IMG/VR virus record: IMGVR_UViG_3300028920_000028
Direction: 5' to 3' (one strand)
DNA length: 57,259 nucleotides
Source: an uncultured virus (IMG/VR IMGVR_UViG_3300028920_000028)
Taxonomy: Duplodnaviria > Heunggongvirae > Uroviricota > Caudoviricetes
In this document: piece by piece, positions 2,626 to 42,501 of the stretch
How the letters are laid out: each line of letters opens with the position of its first letter
Numbering within the stretch: position 1 is the first letter of the stretch
Notes under the pieces: generated by a model
What the model saw: only the letters and a program-made list of their open reading frames with translations
Database searches by the model: none
What the model was told of the DNA's origin: nothing
Made by a program: the position numbers and the translations under genes

Positions 2626-3420
2626 CTAGAAACCGAGATCCTCCAGCGTCCGCTGGTCGCCCTCGGTGTGAAGTTCCCCGTCGTCCACGAGGGGGTGGGA
2701 CGTCACCCACCGGTGCACGTACCCCCTGTCCGCCGTGAATATCGGTATGTCATAGTCCAAAACCCACTCGCACCTCTCGTCCCCGTCCCTGCGGTCGAAG
2801 CAGCAGATCCCGCGCTTGATCCTGGTGTCGAAGTCGTTCCAGTTGACACCCCGCTCCATGAGCATGTCCTGCAGCTGCGACGAGTTCTTGCCGACCATTT
2901 CCCCGTGGCTGTAGTGTTCCCTGACAGCCATCTGGACGGAGTTGCGCGTGCAGTCCTGCTGGCGCCATATGAAGTAGTTGGCGACATCGTCCTGCGGGAC
3001 GTTGAAGGCCCTGCAGTCGAAGTGCGGGGCCTCGTCCCCGCCGAACCTGTTGTGGATGACGAGCGCGCACTCGGCATATCGGGCCGTGAACTCCGAGGCC
3101 GTCACGGACAGGATCTTCTGCAGGCTGTAGTCGAAGTACGCATCCTCGTCAATGTGCCTGTAGTCAGCCAGGAACAGCGACACCTCGTCCGAGAAGTGGT
3201 ATCCGAACCTGGCTCCGGGGACGGCCTCGCACAGCTTCACCATGGCATAGCACATGCAGTCGTGAAAGACCTCGTCGTACGGTCGCTTGAATCCCTTGGC
3301 GTATGTGTGGAAGGCCCTTCCGTCCAGCCTGACTATCACCGGCACGCGGCGGGTCAGCGACGCCGATGTCGTGACCGCCTCGTACCTCTTCATCCTGTCG
3401 CCTATCGACGACCCCTTCAT
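2626..3420 (-). CDS. thg1: tRNA(His) guanylyltransferase Thg1-like protein
   Basis: GDRMKRYE, IVRLDGRAFH, FSDEVSL, FDCRAF, YFIWRQQDCTRNSV motifs. Confidence 0.93.
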   Translation of the reverse strand: MKGSSIGDRMKRYEAVTTSASLTRRVPVIVRLDGRAFHTYAKGFKRPYDEVFHDCMCYAMVKLCEAVPGARFGYHFSDEVSLFLADYRHIDEDAYFDYSLQKILSVTASEFTARYAECALVIHNRFGGDEAPHFDCRAFNVPQDDVANYFIWRQQDCTRNSVQMAVREHYSHGEMVGKNSSQLQDMLMERGVNWNDFDTRIKRGICCFDRRDGDERCEWVLDYDIPIFTADRGYVHRWVTSHPLVDDGELHTEGDQRTLEDLGF

Positions 3421-4037
3421 GGCGCCTCCACTTCCAATGCCCTCATGATGTCGCCGACCACTTCGGCGTCCTTCCTGTGCAGGTTCGACGGGTTCCACGG
3501 CACGCCGCCGCGCAGAAGCCCCGAGGGGTGGTAGGTCGGCACCATCGGCACGAGCCCGAGGCCGCCGCCCATCCGCACGTAGTACAGGCTCCCCCTGTCC
3601 GCCGAAATCGCGGCCCTGCTGTCCTTTATGAGCGCCCTCTTCGCCGCGTTGCCGAGCGGCACGACCGCGCGCAGCCCGCGGGTCCGGAGATAGGCGATGT
3701 CGCGCTCGAGCAGCGGCCTGCAGTGGGCCAGCTCCTCGTCGGTCGGCACCCGGTTGCCCTCGGGGCAGTCCCTTATCGTGTTCGAGAACGCGACGCCCAC
3801 GTACCTCCCCACCTTCCCCCGCACCCACACCATCTGGCTGCGTATCCTCCTGCCCGCCGGCCCGCAGAACGGGCGGCCGCGCCTCTTCTCCTGCCTGCCG
3901 CCTCCCTGCCCCACGAACAGCAGGCTGACTTGGCCGTCGGGATCCGGATACATCTCGGTGGGGAGCATCGTGCACGAGCCCCAGGCGGGGCAGCCCTCGT
4001 CCCCGCAGTCGCACCTGATCCTTCTATACGCGGCCAA
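3417..4037 (-). CDS. Uracil-DNA glycosylase family 4-like protein
   Basis: Cys-rich N-terminus, LLFVGQGGG (GEAPG variant), RPFCGPAG, CPEGNRVP, TYHPS. Confidence 0.8.
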   Translation of the reverse strand: MAAYRRIRCDCGDEGCPAWGSCTMLPTEMYPDPDGQVSLLFVGQGGGRQEKRRGRPFCGPAGRRIRSQMVWVRGKVGRYVGVAFSNTIRDCPEGNRVPTDEELAHCRPLLERDIAYLRTRGLRAVVPLGNAAKRALIKDSRAAISADRGSLYYVRMGGGLGLVPMVPTYHPSGLLRGGVPWNPSNLHRKDAEVVGDIMRALEVEAP

Positions 4038-6592: not shown

Positions 6593-6958
6593 TCACCCCA
6601 TCATCGCGGCGAGCCTCTTCCGGCGCTCGCTCTTGTCCGTGATCTTCTTCACTTCCTTGAGCTCCTCGATCTTGGCGGCGTTCTTGGCCTTCGCCGCGGA
6701 CACCTCGATGGCCGCCTCCATCTGCGCCTCGTGGAGATCCTCCTTGATGTCGTCCATCGCGCCCCGCACGGGATCCGGCCCCGCGCCCCCGCCGTCGCCC
6801 CTGCGTCGGTTGATGAGGCTGACCACGATGACCACCGCCGCGGGCAGCAATATCAGGGCGTACTTCCAATACTTGCGCGTTACGGGGTTCCTCCACGTCA
6901 CGCCTATGACGATGGCCACCGCCAGTATCGCCGCCAGGGCTATCCACTCCCACGACAT
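6593..6958 (-). CDS. Two-TM protein with C-terminal coiled coil (lysis accessory?)
   Basis: MSWEWIALAAILAVAIVIGV and YALILLPAAVVIVVSLI TM segments, then an Ala/Lys/Glu helix. Confidence 0.65.
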   Translation of the reverse strand: MSWEWIALAAILAVAIVIGVTWRNPVTRKYWKYALILLPAAVVIVVSLINRRRGDGGGAGPDPVRGAMDDIKEDLHEAQMEAAIEVSAAKAKNAAKIEELKEVKKITDKSERRKRLAAMMG

Positions 6959-7191: not shown

Positions 7192-7640
7192 TGCCCCGGC
7201 TCCTCCCCGGTGCGGGGCGCGCCCAACGCCCTCGCCACCCTCTCGTAGTCCTCCACCGCCTTCCGGCACCTGGCCACCACCCACGCCTCGATCCTTTCCC
7301 ACTCCTCGGGTGTCATGTCGCCGAGGCCGGTGACCGAGCCGCCGGCCCTGCTGGCGCTGCGGTCGTCTATCACCAAGTCGGCGAGTACCTTCGACCTCCC
7401 CAGCGGGCCGTCCCCGATGGACCGGTTCACGGCGTCGAACTCGAGTCCCTGCATCCGGCAGTACTCCACCGCCCCCTCGAGGCCGTACATGGGTTCGCGG
7501 CACGTGGACAGGATGACCCGGCACCCGAACTCCCCCTTGAACCTCTTGAGGATCTCGATGGCGCGACCGATGGGCGGCCCGACCTCGGGGTAGCAATGCT
7601 TCACTATGGTCCCGTCGAAGTCGACGGCTATCGTCAGCAC
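7188..7640 (-). CDS. HAD-superfamily phosphatase
   Basis: IAVDFDGTIV motif I, ILSTCR motif II, K..ADLVIDDR motif III/IV. Confidence 0.88.
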   Translation of the reverse strand: MLTIAVDFDGTIVKHCYPEVGPPIGRAIEILKRFKGEFGCRVILSTCREPMYGLEGAVEYCRMQGLEFDAVNRSIGDGPLGRSKVLADLVIDDRSASRAGGSVTGLGDMTPEEWERIEAWVVARCRKAVEDYERVARALGAPRTGEEPGQ

Positions 7641-8932
7641 GGCGTCAGTCCCTCTCGCTCACGATCATCTCGACGGGTATGTTCACGCGGTTCGCCTGCC
7701 CGAGCGCCGAGAAGACGGGGGCCATCGAGTGGTCGATGCCCCGTAGCTTCTGCCGCATCAACACTATCGGCGAACCGATCTTGTGGGCTGGCGGGCAGTT
7801 CCTGGCCACCTCGCCGTCCATCCGCTTCATCAACGCCACCTTGGCGCCTACGGTCATGTCCCTCATCCTCATCCTCCATGACGTTGCCCGTGGGCCTCGT
7901 GCGCCTGTGCAGCGCCTTGCGCAGCCCGCGCAGATTGCCCCTCCGGTATGATATGGCGTCCCCGAACTCCTTGGGGAAACGCCTCCTCGCCTCGATGGCG
8001 AACTCCCTCATCTCCGCGCCCGCCCCCACCGCCGACTGCACCTCCGCGGCCATCCCGGCGGCGCGGGCCACGCCGGACTCGATACGGCCCTCCACCGCCG
8101 CCTTGATCCTGTCCGAGTCCCCACGGAACTCCTCCGGGATGCCCTCCAGGTATCTTTGGGGTATCGCCCCGAGGGCGGGGTCGTAGGCCTCCCAGAAGGC
8201 CAGCGGAGTCATGCGCGACACCATCTTGTGTATCCGGCAGTACTCCTCCCCCTTGATTTTGACCTTGAGGCCGTTGGAGAAGGTCACGACGCAGCCCTCC
8301 CGGTTCCCGGGGAGCGCCCTTATGTGTTCGGCAAGGGCCTCCAGCGACCCGAAGTCCGGCAGGAGCGGGGCAACGCGCACGCCCATCCAAGCCGCCTCCG
8401 ACGACAGCCTGTCGTGCGGCATCTCCCGGCCGGTCTCGATCTCGACGGCGCCGAGGAGGACGAGGCCCTCGAAGTCGTACGATATCACTATCTTGCGGCT
8501 GTAGATGATCTCGAACAGGTACGTGTAGCCGGAATCCATGGCGTCCGCGCGCACGTTTTCCCCGAACCACCGCTGGCCCCATTGCGCCATCTCCGAGTCG
8601 AACGACCCCCTCGTCGCTATGCGGTGCGCCCCCATCCAGCGGAAGTGGACGCCCAGGTAGCCGTCCAGCTTCTCCTGCGCGGTGAATGGCAGGTCGGGGA
8701 GGTTCTCGTACCTCGTCTCCTCGACCTCGTTGAGGTTGAAGAACTTGGACCAGGGGCGCGCCACGCACTCCCCCGACCGCTCGTCCAATATGAGGCCGCG
8801 TGCGGAGCGGGTGTACTCGTCCCACAGGGAGCCGTAGACGGCGGCGTGGTCGTAGTTGAGGATGGCCAGGCCGTCCTTGAACCTCTTGAGCACGTGCGGG
8901 TGCTCCAGATATGCCTTCACATCGTAGACCAT
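7634..8932 (-). CDS. T4 Rnl1-like RNA ligase
   Basis: ARGLILD, KFFNLNE, EKLDG (motif I), FEII, EGCVV, KVKIKGEEY. Confidence 0.9.
   Translation of the reverse strand: MVYDVKAYLEHPHVLKRFKDGLAILNYDHAAVYGSLWDEYTRSARGLILDERSGECVARPWSKFFNLNEVEETRYENLPDLPFTAQEKLDGYLGVHFRWMGAHRIATRGSFDSEMAQWGQRWFGENVRADAMDSGYTYLFEIIYSRKIVISYDFEGLVLLGAVEIETGREMPHDRLSSEAAWMGVRVAPLLPDFGSLEALAEHIRALPGNREGCVVTFSNGLKVKIKGEEYCRIHKMVSRMTPLAFWEAYDPALGAIPQRYLEGIPEEFRGDSDRIKAAVEGRIESGVARAAGMAAEVQSAVGAGAEMREFAIEARRRFPKEFGDAISYRRGNLRGLRKALHRRTRPTGNVMEDEDEGHDRRRQGGVDEADGRRGGQELPASPQDRFADSVDAAEATGHRPLDGPRLLGARAGEPREHTRRDDREREGLTPC
7645..7872 (-). CDS. Hypothetical protein overlapped by the RNA ligase tail
   Basis: GGAGG RBS; natural composition, unlike the overlapping ligase-frame tail. 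Confidence 0.55.
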   Translation of the reverse strand: MRMRDMTVGAKVALMKRMDGEVARNCPPAHKIGSPIVLMRQKLRGIDHSMAPVFSALGQANRVNIPVEMIVSERD

Positions 8933-13874: not shown

Positions 13875-14226
13875 TGGTGGAGGTGCGGAGAGTCGAACTC
13901 CGGTCCGCGAAACGATCCATGAAGGCCTCTTCACATGCTTGTCCGGCCTGGTTAACCGTCAGCAGGGACCGGCGCCCGCCGACGGTGGCTGTGCACTGGA
14001 TCTCGGCCTCGGCGCGCGCACAGGCGCCTTCGGCCCAGTCACTGTATTGACCCTCCCCAGGCTACTGTGACCCCTGGCCCGGTTCAGGGAAGCCGCAACT
14101 AGGCAGCTTCGGCGTAGCTGTACTCTTCGGCAGTTGTTTACCGGGTCGGCTTGTTACGCGGCCAACCGACCAACCGCGGCATGCAGCCTACAATTCACGC
14201 CACACGTCGAAACCAAATACACCCCC
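13875..14226 (-). ncRNA. ssrA: tmRNA (352 nt), tag AEEYSYAEAA*
   Basis: 5' GGGGGUGUAUUUGGUUUCGAC; 3' CGGAGUUCGACUCUCCGCACCUCCACCA; acceptor stem with G3.U wobble; tag frame 14131..14099. Confidence 0.96.
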
Positions 14227-14506: not shown

Positions 14507-15145
14507 CTAGGTTTCCTCGATCCTGAAATCCCCGAGCGTGATGACGTAGCTTTTCCTCTCCTTGCGCACGGCGTACCGTATGATGGCCTCCGTGGCGACG
14601 GCGACCGCCAGCATGATTGTGTTGCGGGCGAGCGGGTAGTCGCACACGTCCGGCTCCGTCGTGTCCTTCGGCACCCGGTACGACTCGTTCCAGATGACCT
14701 CCGCGTAGTCCTTGGCCAGCCCGACATGCAGGCAGTCCGTCCCGGTCTCCGCGCAGTACCCGGCCACGAGGGCCCGGCTGGCGCTGTTGTCGAAGCCGTC
14801 CACGACCAGCGTGGGCGTCCCGATCACTTTCACCGCGTTGCGCTCCTCGAGTCGCTGCGTCACGGCCTCGAGGGCCGCCCCGCAGGACGCGAACGCCCCG
14901 TTCTTGAGCATGGTCGCCTTGTACTGCCCGACCTCGCGGCGCGTCCACACCTGGGTGGGGATGTTGTGCACCTCGACGCGATCCATGTCCACGACGCGTA
15001 TGGCCCGGAAGCCCTGGCGGACCATGTTGTCCACCAAGTTCGAGCCCACGGCCCCGGCGCCGCACACGGTCACCGGAAGGGCCGCTATGGTCTGCATGGC
15101 GGCATTGCCCCTGTAGGCCGCCTCGTGCGCCAGCATGTCAGCCAT
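14507..15145 (-). CDS. ThiF/E1-like ubiquitin-activating adenylyltransferase
   Basis: VCGAGAVGS, VVDMDRVEVHNIPTQ, GQYKA, VVDGFDN..SR; lone C-terminal Cys in DVCDYP; no CxxC Zn pairs. Confidence 0.92.
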   Translation of the reverse strand: MADMLAHEAAYRGNAAMQTIAALPVTVCGAGAVGSNLVDNMVRQGFRAIRVVDMDRVEVHNIPTQVWTRREVGQYKATMLKNGAFASCGAALEAVTQRLEERNAVKVIGTPTLVVDGFDNSASRALVAGYCAETGTDCLHVGLAKDYAEVIWNESYRVPKDTTEPDVCDYPLARNTIMLAVAVATEAIIRYAVRKERKSYVITLGDFRIEET

Positions 15146-26258: not shown

Positions 26259-26514
26259 AGCCGAACACGGCCTGCGGCCGGACGGTGACGTTTCCGGTCG
26301 GGCCGACATCGACGTGCATCTCCTGGAACTCCGAGAGCGGCCGGTCATAGTAGATGGCCAGCGCCATGTGGATCTGCGCCGGCGTCACATTCTGCGGAGT
26401 CGGCTTAGTGCCAGACGGGATGCCGATGGTGTTGTAGTCCGACGGCTGGAACAGATCCTCGAACTCGATGTCCTCCGAACGACCCTCGTACTTCACGTGC
26501 ACCATGTTGGACAT
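26257..26514 (-). CDS. Ubiquitin-like (beta-grasp) protein ending in Gly
   Basis: 85 aa: beta-hairpin VHVKYEGRSEDIEF, helix PAQIHMALAIYY, terminal strand NVTVRPQAVFG-COOH; AAGGAGG RBS. Confidence 0.7.
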   Translation of the reverse strand: MSNMVHVKYEGRSEDIEFEDLFQPSDYNTIGIPSGTKPTPQNVTPAQIHMALAIYYDRPLSEFQEMHVDVGPTGNVTVRPQAVFG

Positions 26515-26563
26515 GACGCCCTCCTTTCGAGCCGCGTTGTCGGTGCGGCGCCCCGTTGGATGG

Positions 26564-26592
26564 AATATACTTTTGCCGAACCCTTTTGTATA
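26564..26592 (-). promoter_or_regulatory. sigma70-like promoter TATACA-N17-TATATT
   Basis: 50 nt upstream of the Ubl start. Confidence 0.65.
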
Positions 26593-26630
26593 CCGAAAAT
26601 CTCAACTTTTTTACACGGCCCGGACGCAGA

Positions 26631-26661
26631 AAGGGCCGGGAAACTGGGTTCCCCGGCCCTT
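26631..26661 (-). terminator. GC-rich hairpin, probable end of the ncRNA transcript
   Basis: AAGGGCCGGG/CCCGGCCCTT stem followed by a short U-rich run. Confidence 0.6.
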
Positions 26662-26694
26662 GCACAGACGCCCTACCAAGATGTCATAAAAGAA

Positions 26695-26870
26695 GGCTCT
26701 TCGGTATCAATCCCCGCCCGAGTCTCGGATGCGTGTGCCCCGCCTTCCCTTAATCGGGTTGGCAGGGCGTTCGTCCCGACAGGCACTCATGGCCTGCCGG
26801 AACTGTCTTATCACTGTCCATGATAGATGTACGCCCCCGCATAGAGGACAGAGACTGATATCAAAGAGCC
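26695..26870 (-). ncRNA. Structured RNA module 2 (Y-RNA-like), 176 nt
   Basis: 26846-26870 pairs with 26695-26719 (24 of 25 positions, counting GU); encloses GGGGCGUACAU and three hairpins. Confidence 0.7.
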
Positions 26871-26876
26871 GTCTCC

Positions 26877-27039
26877 GGCTCTTCCTTATTCAAGACGGCA
26901 CGAGTCGCTGGTGCGTGTTTTGGATTGCATCCAGGGATATGATCCCCGAACCTCTTGGTTGATAGCCAAGCGCTCTACCCAATTGAGCTAAATGCATGTA
27001 CGCCCCAACCTGGAGCGCCGTCCTGAATGAGAAAGAGCC
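26877..27039 (-). ncRNA. Structured RNA module 1 (Y-RNA-like), 163 nt, enclosing a tRNA-like domain
   Basis: 27015-27039 pairs with 26877-26901 (24 of 25 positions, counting GU). Confidence 0.72.
26921..26997 (-). tRNA. Aberrant tRNA-like cloverleaf, anticodon AUC, encoded CCA
   Basis: AUGCAUU UA GCUC AAUUGGGUA GAGC G CUUGG CUAUCAA CCAAG AGGUU CGGGG AUCAUAU CCCUG GAUGCAA U CCA. Confidence 0.75.
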
Positions 27040-27051
27040 AAACGCTGACCA

Positions 27052-27080
27052 AATATACCAACATCAAGCGGGATTGTCAA
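27052..27080 (-). promoter_or_regulatory. sigma70 promoter TTGACA-N17-TATATT driving the ncRNA
   Basis: Perfect -35 and 17-bp spacer; predicted TSS about 27045. Confidence 0.85.
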
Positions 27081-28261
27081 CCCCTGTATGTCGATTCCCC
27101 GTCGAGCATGGTGATGCTGTACCTGCTCTCCTTGCCGATCTCCTCCCGCCAGCCCTTCTTGCGCAGCTGGATGGGCATCCTCCACGTCAGCCCGTAGGTG
27201 GGGTGGACGCCCAACAGCCACTGGTAGGGCTCCGAGAAGGCGCCGATGCGCTCGAGTGCGAACTCGTCGGTGGCCATCCACGAGCCGTTGATGATCGTCT
27301 CGCCCGTCGTGTGCTGCTGCGTGGCCATCGTGTGGAAGTGCCCGAAGAGGTAGTAGTGGGGCACCTGCCCCGACACCGTCCCGATGGCGTTCAGTCGGCG
27401 CGTCTTGCGCTCGATGCCGTACCATGGGAGACTGTTCCAGCTCCGTATGTCGTCCCCGTGGTTCAGCACGAAGTTCCAGTCGTAGACGGAGAGGATCATC
27501 GACCAGGTATCCGGGCACACGATCTCCAGGCGCCCCTCCTCGACGAGGCCCCTCAGCCGCGCCGCCGCGTGCGCCACCACGAGGTAGTCCCAGTTGTCGT
27601 GGGCGCCGCGGAAGTCCTTCTTCGGGGTCTTGCGGCCGTGGTTGCCGGACACGCTGCAGAAGACGATCTTGGGGAAGTAGCGGCTGAGGTCGGTGATCAT
27701 CATCGCGATCAGCTCGCCCATGCCCATGGCGTTCTTCAGGGAGTTGCGCCACTTGCTGTGCTCGGTGGCCCCGTGTATCTCCCCGCTGACGTAGTCGCCG
27801 AGCCCGGAGATGTACAGGGTCTCGAACTTGTACGCCTTCATGTTGTCCACGAGGTGGGAGATGGTCGTGTCGACTATCCTCTCCGCCCTCTGGCAGGCCA
27901 CGTCGAACCCGAACTCCTCCAAGCCCCTGACCCTCTTCGGGAGGATCTCCTGGTCGCCGTGGCTGTCGGACAGGACGAGCATGGCGGACTCGGTGATCTG
28001 CGACTTCCTTCCCATGATGGAACTGTAGGGGGCGAAGGTGGAGAACGGCGCCTGATCCTCGATGAGCGGGGCCAGGCTCTTGAAGAGCGTGGACTCCCTC
28101 TGCGCCCTCTTCAGCTCCGCGCCGAGCCTCCGGTTCTCGTCCTGCAGCCTCCTGATGTCCTCCTGGGCCGAAAGCTCGTAGGAGCCCTCGTCGTCCGTGC
28201 CGTTGGCCGAGATTTTCCTGACCAGCTTGAGCCTCTTCGCGAAGTTTTTGGGTTTTGGCAT
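27077..28261 (-). CDS. Calcineurin-like phosphoesterase with N-terminal coiled coil
   Basis: LSDSHG, LGDYVSG, SGNHGR, NHGD, FGHFH. Confidence 0.85.
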   Translation of the reverse strand: MPKPKNFAKRLKLVRKISANGTDDEGSYELSAQEDIRRLQDENRRLGAELKRAQRESTLFKSLAPLIEDQAPFSTFAPYSSIMGRKSQITESAMLVLSDSHGDQEILPKRVRGLEEFGFDVACQRAERIVDTTISHLVDNMKAYKFETLYISGLGDYVSGEIHGATEHSKWRNSLKNAMGMGELIAMMITDLSRYFPKIVFCSVSGNHGRKTPKKDFRGAHDNWDYLVVAHAAARLRGLVEEGRLEIVCPDTWSMILSVYDWNFVLNHGDDIRSWNSLPWYGIERKTRRLNAIGTVSGQVPHYYLFGHFHTMATQQHTTGETIINGSWMATDEFALERIGAFSEPYQWLLGVHPTYGLTWRMPIQLRKKGWREEIGKESRYSITMLDGESTYRG

Positions 28262-41216: not shown

Positions 41217-41738
41217 TCAGGCGAATATCTGCTCGGTCCGAATGCACTCCATGACATGCGACAAGTCGCTGTCCCTAGCCAAGTTGAACACGGGAATGCC
41301 ATAATGGGACGCAACCCGCAGAGCCTGCGCCGTGCCGCCGACCCTCCGTCCGCCGCTCGTCCAGCACACGATGAACCTGGAAGGGTCGTCGAGACCCCTG
41401 CCGAGCACTTGGTAGCAGTTGCGGGCATGCAGTTCGCGCGCGCCCGTGGACAGGGCATCCCATGCCGGGTGGAACGACTCCGCCATTTTGAGGGCCGCCT
41501 CGTCCACGCCCTCATATGGGGAGGTTCTGGTGTTGAAGCCCCGCCAGGGCAGATACACCTCCTTCATCGACCCGTCCGAAACGCCGGCCTCGAACGCGGC
41601 GTCGGCCCCGACCGCGCCCCCGGAGCGCAGGACGTACCCCCTGCGCTCCAGAAAGTACGCGATGCGGGTCATCAACTTCATGACCTCGAAAGGCGTCCGC
41701 CTGCTACCCACGCCCGTGTAGCACGGCCTAGAATGCAA
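41217..41738 (-). CDS. DprA/Smf-like (SLOG) Rossmann protein
   Basis: YTGVGSRRTP, LRSGGAVGAD, HARN..QVLG, GGTAQALRVA; probable TTG start. Confidence 0.8.
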   Translation of the reverse strand: MHSRPCYTGVGSRRTPFEVMKLMTRIAYFLERRGYVLRSGGAVGADAAFEAGVSDGSMKEVYLPWRGFNTRTSPYEGVDEAALKMAESFHPAWDALSTGARELHARNCYQVLGRGLDDPSRFIVCWTSGGRRVGGTAQALRVASHYGIPVFNLARDSDLSHVMECIRTEQIFA

Positions 41739-42501
41739 AGACCTGTCCCTTCGCGACGAAATCCGCGAAACCGTCCTGCTTGGCATTGGGAAGGCCCTCG
41801 GCGTCGCCGTTCCAATGATAGAGGTACATCTTGGCCTTCTGCTCTTTTGGAAGCCCCTTCAAGTCCTCATAATGGGCGTGCACCCCGGACGCAAACGGGG
41901 CGGTCTCACAGTCATGGAACACGACATCAGCGTCGGCGATGAAGTCTTTCAGCTGCGCCGGGGCGAACTGCGTATCCGATGTGATGAACACCTTGGCGCC
42001 GTGCTCCGTCGTAATCATCAGCCCGAAGGACTTCACAAAGGTGGTGTCCGCCACCACATGCACAGTCTGCACCGTCTTGCAATGGATGCCGTCGAAGTCG
42101 AACGACCCGCTGTTCGGCAGCTTCACGACATCGAAAAACGTGTCGAGGGTGCTGTCCATCATCTGGATGGAATCGAGACCCCCCTTCAGGCTGTGGTGCC
42201 ACAGGTCATGAAGAAGCTTGGAGTTGCCGTACAACACGGGCTTGAATCCGGTCTTCACCGTTTTCACGAAATAGTTGGTGAAGGCGACATACTCCAGCCC
42301 CCCGACATGGTCGGCGTGAAGATGGGATATGTAGACGGCGTCGATATCCAAGGCCGTGAGTTCCTTCTCCCTGAGCGCCCATCGGATGTCGCCCCCGCAG
42401 TCGAATAGCATCCTCTTTCCGCTCTCACCCGTCAGCAGCATGTTGCTCTGGTAGTTGTCGACCGTGAACGCGGATCCGCTTCCCAAAAATGTTATGTGCA
42501 T
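41728..42501 (-). CDS. Metallo-beta-lactamase-fold hydrolase (RNase Z/cyclic phosphodiesterase-like)
   Basis: FLGSGSAF, DCG, SHLHADHVGG, TSDT, HAHY. Confidence 0.9.
   Translation of the reverse strand: MHITFLGSGSAFTVDNYQSNMLLTGESGKRMLFDCGGDIRWALREKELTALDIDAVYISHLHADHVGGLEYVAFTNYFVKTVKTGFKPVLYGNSKLLHDLWHHSLKGGLDSIQMMDSTLDTFFDVVKLPNSGSFDFDGIHCKTVQTVHVVADTTFVKSFGLMITTEHGAKVFITSDTQFAPAQLKDFIADADVVFHDCETAPFASGVHAHYEDLKGLPKEQKAKMYLYHWNGDAEGLPNAKQDGFADFVAKGQVFAF

Follow-up and report, generated by a model that had tools for sequence, protein, structure and literature searches.

At positions 26,695 to 27,039 of a 57,259-nucleotide stretch of DNA from an uncultured virus of the Caudoviricetes (IMG/VR record IMGVR_UViG_3300028920_000028; the whole stretch is hereafter called the window), two RNA modules lie in tandem on the minus strand, upstream of a gene encoding a protein with a predicted Ro60 fold. 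Both Y RNAs and Ro60 have been conserved in organisms from bacteria to humans, and the question raised by this locus is whether the two modules are Y-RNA-like partners of the phage protein or serve another purpose. The analysis identifies the modules as real, conserved, structured RNA genes of a large unannotated family that is linked, in huge phages and some bacteria, to a divergent protein of Ro60 fold. Their structure, conservation, covariation and genomic linkage were observed, as was the Ro60 fold of the neighbouring protein. By analogy with known systems, the modules are probably Y-RNA-like partners of this phage Ro60 homologue, with a constant handle that would dock on the protein ring and variable cargoes that would recruit partners.

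One handle, different cargoes

Module 1 (26877-27039, minus strand; 163 nt) consists of a 25-position closing stem, a 4x4 internal loop, a core helix formed by GGGCGUACA and ACGCAC, and a tRNA-like cargo. Module 2 (26695-26870, minus strand; 176 nt) has the same handle around a cargo folding into three hairpins, and the two are separated by the 6-nt linker GGAGAC (26871-26876, minus strand). They share their ends, GGCUCUUU on the 5' side and AAGAGCC on the 3' side. In the minimum free energy (MFE) folds, 24 of the 25 closing-stem positions are paired in each module, as 10 pairs, an unpaired position 11 and 14 pairs in module 1, and as 9 pairs, an unpaired position 10 and 15 pairs in module 2, in agreement with the tandem stems and single interruption that a first-pass annotation of this DNA had described. 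The core motif GGGGCGUACAU (26996-27006, minus strand, in module 1), whose family-invariant form is GCNUACA, begins at position 34 of each module, 25 nt past the common 5' end; this spacing, the resulting period of 169 nt and the linker, all claimed earlier, were confirmed on the minus-strand sequence. The modules thus show the parts of a Y RNA, namely a long stem formed by the 5' and 3' ends, a conserved interruption and a separate cargo or effector domain. None of 100 dinucleotide shuffles was as stable as the whole 345 nt (z = -10.35), and none of 200 was as stable as module 1 (z = -7.35) or module 2 (z = -8.58).

The cargo of module 1 (26921-26997, minus strand) is an unpermuted cloverleaf with the anticodon loop CUAUCAA, the T loop AUCAUAU and a discriminator U followed by CCA. 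It scores 49.5 bits with the Rfam tRNA model (RF00005; cut-off 29) at 26924-26997, aligning in natural order, with an anticodon loop of 7 nt, to model positions 1-71, and ARAGORN called it as tRNA-Asp(AUC) at 26921-26997; together with the MFE fold of module 2, these results bear out the earlier claim that a cloverleaf and three hairpins are carried by the same handle. At 14 related loci, 26 further cargoes matched the Rfam tRNA model with 35-72 bits. The tRNA-type cargoes keep the natural arm order, with a nearly invariant D arm and mostly canonical T loops, that of the window being a variant found in 4 modules. The anticodon loop retains Y32 (40/42), U33 (37/42) and R37 (39/42), and its triplets are diverse (22 different in 40 loops, many with A first); elements called as 'Leu' and 'Ser' tRNAs are 73-77 nt long and lack a long variable arm. 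Of the 80 modules that could be parsed (out of 87), 45 have a discriminator and then CCA, and the ends of the tRNA-like body are locked inside the handle.

Related loci were fetched by alignment-based scans (13 viral, 80 metagenomic and 12 from metagenome-assembled genomes, MAGs), and 42 diverse modules of tRNA type, cut solely by their distance from the TACA and ACT anchors, were aligned with MAFFT to give a covariance model, R1. In the window, R1 matched modules 1 and 2 only, the former with 134 bits (E 2.6e-34) and the latter with 38.3 bits (E 1.6e-7); having been trained on the tRNA type only, the model detects module 2 by its handle alone. A census of the window and 93 loci at E <= 0.01, in which the counts are lower bounds for non-tRNA cargo, returned 192 matches, and removal of identical sequences left 141 distinct modules, 89 of tRNA type (at least 70 bits) and 52 with other cargo. 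The latter, module 2 among them, are full-length R1 matches of 21-56 bits. Both core motifs occur in 123/141 modules (81 tRNA-type and 42 other), and the handle is therefore common to tRNA-like and non-tRNA cargoes. Close relatives of the window carry rows of 3-5 modules with an identical handle type and differing cargoes, and AT-rich distant relatives keep the architecture with different stem sequences. Across the loci compared, the GC content of modules ranges from 29% to 68%, and the Ro-like proteins of the loci are 42-87% identical. A loop motif in a hairpin of module 2, GCC-N2-3-AGUGC, was set aside as a family feature, having only 4 true cases among the 52 non-tRNA modules.

From the outside in, a module is built of the closing stem, the internal loop, the core helix, an unpaired UACA(U), the cargo and an A-rich linker leading back to GCA. 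The closing stem spans 25 positions in the clade of the window; family-wide, its inner 12 pairs are formed in about 85% or more of the rows and its outer 10 in about half to two-thirds. The 4x4 internal loop has conserved bases, with RACU on the 3' side, and the core helix pairs GCN with N'GC. In the resulting core, GCNUACA ... GCA-N4-RACU, the elements GC-UACA, GC(A) and ACU are invariant in 42/42 aligned modules; at the N of GCN, the base changes in concert with the one it pairs with (UA 16, AU 11, GC 9).

Covariation was looked for in homologous loci and was found. When the closing stem was written by register into the 42-module MAFFT alignment and compared with controls in which the partners were slid, 77.0% of cells were paired versus 34-44%, and the covariation score was 0.578 versus at most 0.214, a value reached by 0/500 shuffles; RNAalifold did not call the closing stem unaided on this alignment. 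In a model-fitted alignment of the 150 best matches (115 distinct rows), 86.5% of cells were paired versus at most 43.6% with slid partners, and 44/44 modelled pairs had changed on both sides in a compensatory manner; this alignment is biased towards structure, so the 42-module MAFFT test serves as the independent check. Invariant bases set within covarying helices are the pattern that a protein-binding site would show. At the start of the 5' arm, at the base of the closing stem, the motif UCUUUSA occurs in 54/141 modules compared with 80/5000 (1.6%) random windows, and in the window it lies at 27037-27031 and 26868-26862 (minus strand). As the 3' arm pairs with it mostly through G-U, it is the 5' strand sequence itself that is kept, and UCUUU(G/C)A may be a processing signal.

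The modules are tightly linked to genes for Ro-like proteins. The covariance-model search upstream of Ro-like homologues, which the first-pass annotation had suggested, found modules in 41 of the 43 loci whose upstream sequence was 3 kb or longer, at 1-7 per locus (mode 3). In this set all 112 matches lie upstream of the Ro-like gene, with the downstream flanks searched equally, and 94 of them are on its strand; one R1 match, an ordinary tRNA in locus L079, had been removed before these counts. Among all 81 distinct loci, 62 have R1 matches, and 15 of the 19 empty ones have less than 1.1 kb of upstream sequence. ARAGORN reported tRNA-like elements in 62/93 loci, nearly all with GCNUACA immediately before them. 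In five whole related phage records, R1 matches of at least 100 bits were confined to the Ro locus, and the partial matches were ordinary tRNA clusters; full-length matches of about 50 bits outside the Ro locus (L094-L096) proved to be ordinary tRNAs without a handle. R1 matches also lie just upstream of the Ro-like gene in 10/12 bacterial MAG loci, whose Ro-like proteins have 38-55% identity. A ZTP riboswitch at 6604-6691 (minus strand) of locus L109, 1.7 kb from a distant Ro-like gene on a Ktedonobacteraceae MAG contig, suggests that some family members reside in bacterial chromosomes.

Simpler searches recovered little of this family. With blastn against named phages, only about 58 nt of the tRNA-like part of the RNA region matched, in 6 records, and nhmmer profiles of the two handle halves returned only the close clade (7 loci and the window), so that a structure-aware search was needed. 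A scan for long stems (20 of 22 pairs) was noisy and was dropped.

The Ro60-fold protein and its surroundings

The protein encoded downstream of the modules, P0001 (24554-26128, minus strand; 524 amino acids), begins 567 nt past the end of module 2 on the same strand, which places the modules within the approximately 4 kb of a Ro60 gene, usually on one strand, that Chen et al. (2014) used as a criterion for Y RNAs. An AlphaFold2 model built from 22 homologues (predicted local distance difference test, pLDDT, 80) shows a helical-repeat ring followed by a vWA domain with a complete MIDAS (metal ion-dependent adhesion site), the arrangement of Ro60, and the MIDAS residues D344, S346, S348, T406 and D430 are invariant. 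The top 12 PDB matches found by Foldseek are all Ro60 structures (frog, human, Deinococcus Rsr and Thermus phage phiLo), with E-values of 7.7e-11 to 4.6e-9, template modelling (TM) scores of 0.50-0.61 over 520-570 columns and 12-15% identity; over the full length of P0001 the model resembles Ro60 structures and nothing else. P0001 can thus be regarded, on the predicted fold, as a divergent Ro60 homologue.

At the level of sequence families, the kinship is much fainter. Pfam TROVE did not match P0001 at E <= 1 or any of 22 family members at E <= 0.1 (0/22), Pfam vWA_Ro60 weakly matched 6/22 family members, and PHROGs assigned P0001 only as 'RNA-binding protein' (E 9e-5). The sole profile match in the PDB was the Ro60 homologue of phiLo, phiRo60, which was non-significant (E 0.79), and a phmmer search of the PDB with the single P0001 sequence gave nothing relevant. 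The TROVE protein that the first-pass annotation had placed next to the modules therefore holds by its Ro60 fold but not by its sequence family.

A search of viral contigs with P0001 alone returned 0 relatives; alignment-based scans succeeded. The family is large, a search at E <= 0.001 having returned 712 proteins, many of them encoded on contigs 135-470 kb long. Just one relative is named, from an uncultured 595-kb phage (38% identity). The parent contig of the window is 463,769 bp long and the window also contains phage replication genes; its source is a huge phage.

The 345 nt of the two modules would form a putative two-gene non-coding RNA operon, judging from the signals around it. A sigma-70-type promoter is predicted at 27052-27080 (minus strand), TTGACA-17 nt-TATATT with TG preceding the -10 element and 11/12 consensus matches, and ends 13 nt before module 1. 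In 6/6 close-clade loci TTGACA-17-TATATT is kept 43-47 nt before the first module, and looser matches were seen in most of 12 more distant loci inspected. At the other end, 20-70 nt past module 2, lies a terminator-like GC-rich hairpin with a 14-bp inner stem followed by UUUCU (26622-26673, minus strand; -34.2 kcal/mol, z -3.25), which was not called in a consensus terminator scan, its U tract being weak. A weaker promoter-like site with 9/12 matches (26564-26592, minus strand) precedes the protein genes. Upstream of the array, the gene P0002 (27077-28318, minus strand) encodes a metallophosphoesterase-type 'exonuclease' (PHROG 284, E 1.4e-35) and adjoins the array in 11/93 loci, including the close relatives of the window.

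Two further genes complete the cassette. orf85 (P0124; 26257-26514, minus strand) encodes a small conserved protein between the RNA array and the Ro-like gene and was detected by tblastn in 85/93 loci. orf301 (P0123; 23398-24303, minus strand), whose product has an OB-like domain, follows the Ro-like gene; it is likewise conserved and was detected in 71/93. Neither could be assigned to a family of Pfam or NCBIfam. The product of orf85 has glycine as its last residue, and in its Atlas model it looks like small proteins of the beta-grasp, ubiquitin-like kind, with TM of about 0.5 to named families, so that a beta-grasp or ubiquitin-like fold is a lead only. A ThiF/E1-like gene (14507-15145, minus strand; E 4.7e-26) lies 11 kb from orf85, and the two may link ubiquitin-like conjugation to the Ro cassette. 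For orf301, the AlphaFold2 model (pLDDT 85) contains a central OB-like domain whose matches are middling (RsgA, S17, aIF1A and RNase II types, Z 5-6; Foldseek E about 4e-4), and an Atlas search gave no usable match. When the Ro-like protein and orf301 were co-folded, the score was 0.59 compared with 0.13 for the best of 3 controls, the runs agreed in at least 62% of contacts, and the partner pLDDT was at least 75. The mark used for such co-folds is reached by 116/157 solved complexes and 2/215 mismatched pairs; with scores no higher than 0.60, it is reached by only 18 of the 157 solved complexes and by both of the mismatches that pass. The predicted pairing thus lends weak support and is insufficient to claim binding.

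Elsewhere in the window, a Thg1-like tRNA-His guanylyltransferase domain (E 2.6e-27) and a T4-type RNA ligase 1 (E 1.5e-17) are encoded at 2626-4014 / 7634-8932 (minus strand), 18-24 kb from the Ro locus, and amount to a tRNA-repair toolkit in one phage. A full-length transfer-messenger RNA (tmRNA) gene at 13875-14226 (minus strand; Rfam 117.8 bits, tag peptide AEEYSYAEAA) lies within a region of phage replication and RNA metabolism. In a related phage locus (L080), a group I intron match of 99.1 bits overlaps the 3' end of a tmRNA match of 87.4 bits at 7848-8449 (plus strand). A metallo-beta-lactamase-fold protein matching the anti-Pycsar Apyc1 family (41728-42501, minus strand; 98.7 bits, cut-off 50) is a candidate counter-defence nuclease for cyclic nucleotides.

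Proposed function and its rivals

A role as Y-RNA-like partners of P0001 is the favoured reading, and there is precedent for it, both in the YrlA RNAs encoded beside Ro60 genes (Chen et al. 2014) and in the Y-like RNAs of phage phiLo that bind Ro60. In the course of events that we infer for the transcription, processing, binding and function of the modules, the RNA operon directly upstream of the three-gene cassette (orf85, the Ro60-fold protein and orf301) would yield a dimeric precursor, which would be cut to single modules in or beside the closing stems (at least 22 bp). RNase III would be the obvious candidate for this step, with its cutting site perhaps marked by UCUUUSA at the base of the stem. 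Docking on the Ro60-like ring would then fall to the handle's invariant core, leaving the tRNA-like cargo to attract tRNA-recognising proteins and the hairpin cargo to attract other factors. Bound in this way, the RNA could tether or gate the Ro-like protein during infection, as in the complex of Ro60, Y RNA and polynucleotide phosphorylase (PNPase), and the OB-like orf301 or an exoribonuclease of the host may be among its partners.

Several observations weigh against this interpretation. P0001 is very divergent, with 12-15% identity to the solved Ro60 structures, and the Rfam YrlA model does not match the modules. The known Ro-binding motifs (GGUCCGA, GNCGAAN0-1G and CGAA) are absent from the handle, the one CGAA present lying inside the cargo of module 2 and at no conserved handle position. 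Of the 112 modules, 18 are on the opposite strand, and a genuine module lies about 220 kb from the Ro gene of a 424-kb phage (G002), within a tRNA cluster (C1:179619-179823, minus strand; L097). Moreover, the intact anticodon loop and the encoded CCA (45/80) would fit the release of a tRNA-sized product equally well, and orf85 and orf301 could be the real RNA partners.

The main rival, which we consider unlikely, is that processing is the sole function: the stems and core would only guide RNase III, RNase P and 3' trimming, with Ro60 as a mere neighbour, and what they release would be small hairpin RNAs along with RNAs the size of a tRNA, which might be chargeable or serve as decoys. Stems of at least 22 bp, such as the closing stems, are within the size range of RNase III substrates. 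The tRNA domain is unpermuted with an open acceptor stem, frequently has a canonical T loop and, in 45/80 modules, a discriminator and CCA, and its anticodon loop keeps Y32, U33 and R37; in addition, the phage encodes the T4-type RNA ligase 1 and the Thg1-like enzyme. A comparable fate is described, in the available text of the source, for the YrlA of M. smegmatis, which RNase P cleaves and to which CCA is added (Chen et al. 2014, PMC4201824). However, 52 distinct non-tRNA cargoes occur in an identical handle, which is therefore no tRNA-specific device, and ordinary tRNA genes of related phages (L094-L096) do without it. The 'anticodons' do not look like a decoding set either, with 22 triplets in 40 loops, many A-first, and 'Leu' and 'Ser' calls that have no long variable arm, and processing alone leaves the invariant core and the tight linkage to the Ro gene unexplained. 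Processing of the closing stems, which the first-pass annotation had offered as its alternative with RNase III as the enzyme, is nevertheless likely in any case, and may hold alongside a Y-like role.

It seems quite improbable that the RNAs pair instead with another protein of the cassette, the OB-like orf301 or the small orf85, in place of the Ro-like ring. The presence of orf85 in 85/93 and orf301 in 71/93 loci speaks for such a partnership, as do the OB-fold matches of the central domain of orf301 (Z 5-6, Foldseek E about 4e-4), but these matches are middling and may reflect a common arrangement. Ro60 proteins, by comparison, are the known partners of stem-plus-cargo RNAs encoded beside them, and we know of no precedent for the pairing of such RNAs with orf301- or orf85-like proteins. 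That the modules are a chance palindrome, a repeat or a degenerate tRNA pseudogene without function is hardly credible: it would have to accommodate fold z-scores of -7.4 to -10.4, a conserved promoter, and compensatory changes at 44/44 pairs among loci with just 42-87% identity between their Ro-like proteins and a module GC content of 29% to 68%, and it is already contradicted by the covariation.

A wider interpretation, offered tentatively and doubtful as it stands, is that of a distinct ribonucleoprotein system of huge phages and some bacteria, made of a Ro60-like ring, a ubiquitin-like protein, an OB-fold protein and up to 7 handle RNAs. Its tRNA bodies, of natural topology and with intact anticodon loops, unconstrained triplets and often CCA, would bait or sense host tRNA-cleaving defence nucleases, or be released as tRNA-like effectors, and the ring would pass damaged RNAs to phage repair enzymes, such as the RNA ligase 1 and the Thg1-like enzyme encoded 18-24 kb away.

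The family supplies hundreds of natural variants of one constant handle with swappable cargoes, and extends the known range of Ro60 systems into huge phages. The invariant bases within covarying helices provide a new candidate Ro-binding core, and orf85 and orf301 are indicated as two unstudied conserved proteins that may be partners. Standard annotation misses both the divergent partner protein and the RNAs, and counts of Ro60 systems in viral metagenomes are probably too low.

Comparison with known Y RNAs

Among the nearest known counterparts are the YrlA RNAs (RF02553). In 254 bacteria and 22 phages, according to the available text of Chen et al. (2014, PMC4201824), a YrlA gene is found on the strand of Ro60 and no more than 4 kb away from it; these RNAs share the motif GNCGAAN0-1G. 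Both systems have an adjacent Ro60 gene with the RNAs mostly upstream on one strand, and both are modular, joining a stem of the 5' and 3' ends that contains a conserved protein-binding region (putative in the present case) to a tRNA-mimic cargo. Each has near-invariant D and T arms, and several different RNAs often stand in a row. The two differ in the core, which is GCNUACA / GCA-N4-RACU here and GNCGAAN0-1G in YrlA, and in the closing stem, which is longer here, with 25 positions in the clade of the window. They also differ in the tRNA body. That of YrlA is described as permuted, in the order T arm, closed acceptor hairpin and D arm (Chen et al. 2014, PMC4201824), and, as far as the available text goes, as having no anticodon loop and being connected by the anticodon stem to the Ro-binding site (PMC4201824; Wang et al. 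2018, bioRxiv 10.1101/312249). In the modules analysed here the body is unpermuted and keeps its anticodon stem-loop intact; the handle departs from its acceptor end, and CCA is frequently encoded.

The modules are not YrlA, judged by this core, by the tRNA body and by searches with the Rfam model, a check proposed by the first-pass annotation. RF02553, for which membership requires at least 69 bits, gave no match in 26300-27400 even at E <= 10, and none at the gathering score in 14 + 12 related loci. Its cut-off was exceeded in 0/5 related phage records, where weak matches fell in tRNA clusters and not at the Ro locus. The tRNA domain, being in natural order, likewise lacks the permutation that characterises YrlA.

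In genomic setting, the system of Thermus phage phiLo (Yrl1/Yrl2 and phiRo60; PMC12135203; PDB 9KOP, 9L5Y) is similar, in that the gene of a phage Ro60 homologue is preceded directly by two genes for Y-like RNAs, and phiRo60 ranks among the top fold matches of P0001. The phiLo RNAs carry a CGAA motif and, as the available text reports, bind Ro60 in electrophoretic mobility shift assays and host PNPase in vitro (PMC12135203). They are described there as stem-bulge-stem structures with one or two hairpins, and the available text mentions no tRNA-like domain (PMC12135203). The modules of the window, by comparison, have no CGAA core, carry a full cloverleaf as cargo, and are accompanied by two extra conserved cassette genes.

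What remains of the proposed new Y-RNA-like class with a shared handle and interchangeable cargo is its substance: the Ro60 fold, the covariation of the handle over 89 tRNA-like and 52 other cargoes, and the linkage all support it. The words 'new class' are overstated, because Y RNAs of modular build, with tRNA-like domains and arranged in arrays next to Ro60, are an established concept (Chen et al. 2014; phiLo Yrl1/Yrl2). In the literature, judged mainly by titles and the openings of abstracts, no Y-like RNAs with a GCNUACA / RACU core and no Ro60 arrays of huge phages were found.

With regard to the tRNA-like cargo, a further counterpart is Yrn1 of D. radiodurans, in which, according to the available text, the T and D elements are ordered as in a natural tRNA and flank an anticodon-arm-like hairpin (Chen et al. 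2014, PMC4201824). The modules of the window share this orientation. The resemblance of Yrn1 to a tRNA is partial in that description, with a 6-nt loop, no full D arm and a Ro-binding helix of the metazoan type (Chen et al. 2014, PMC4201824), whereas the modules described here score as full tRNAs in Rfam (35-72 bits), and include the most complete tRNA mimic yet seen in RNAs of this kind.
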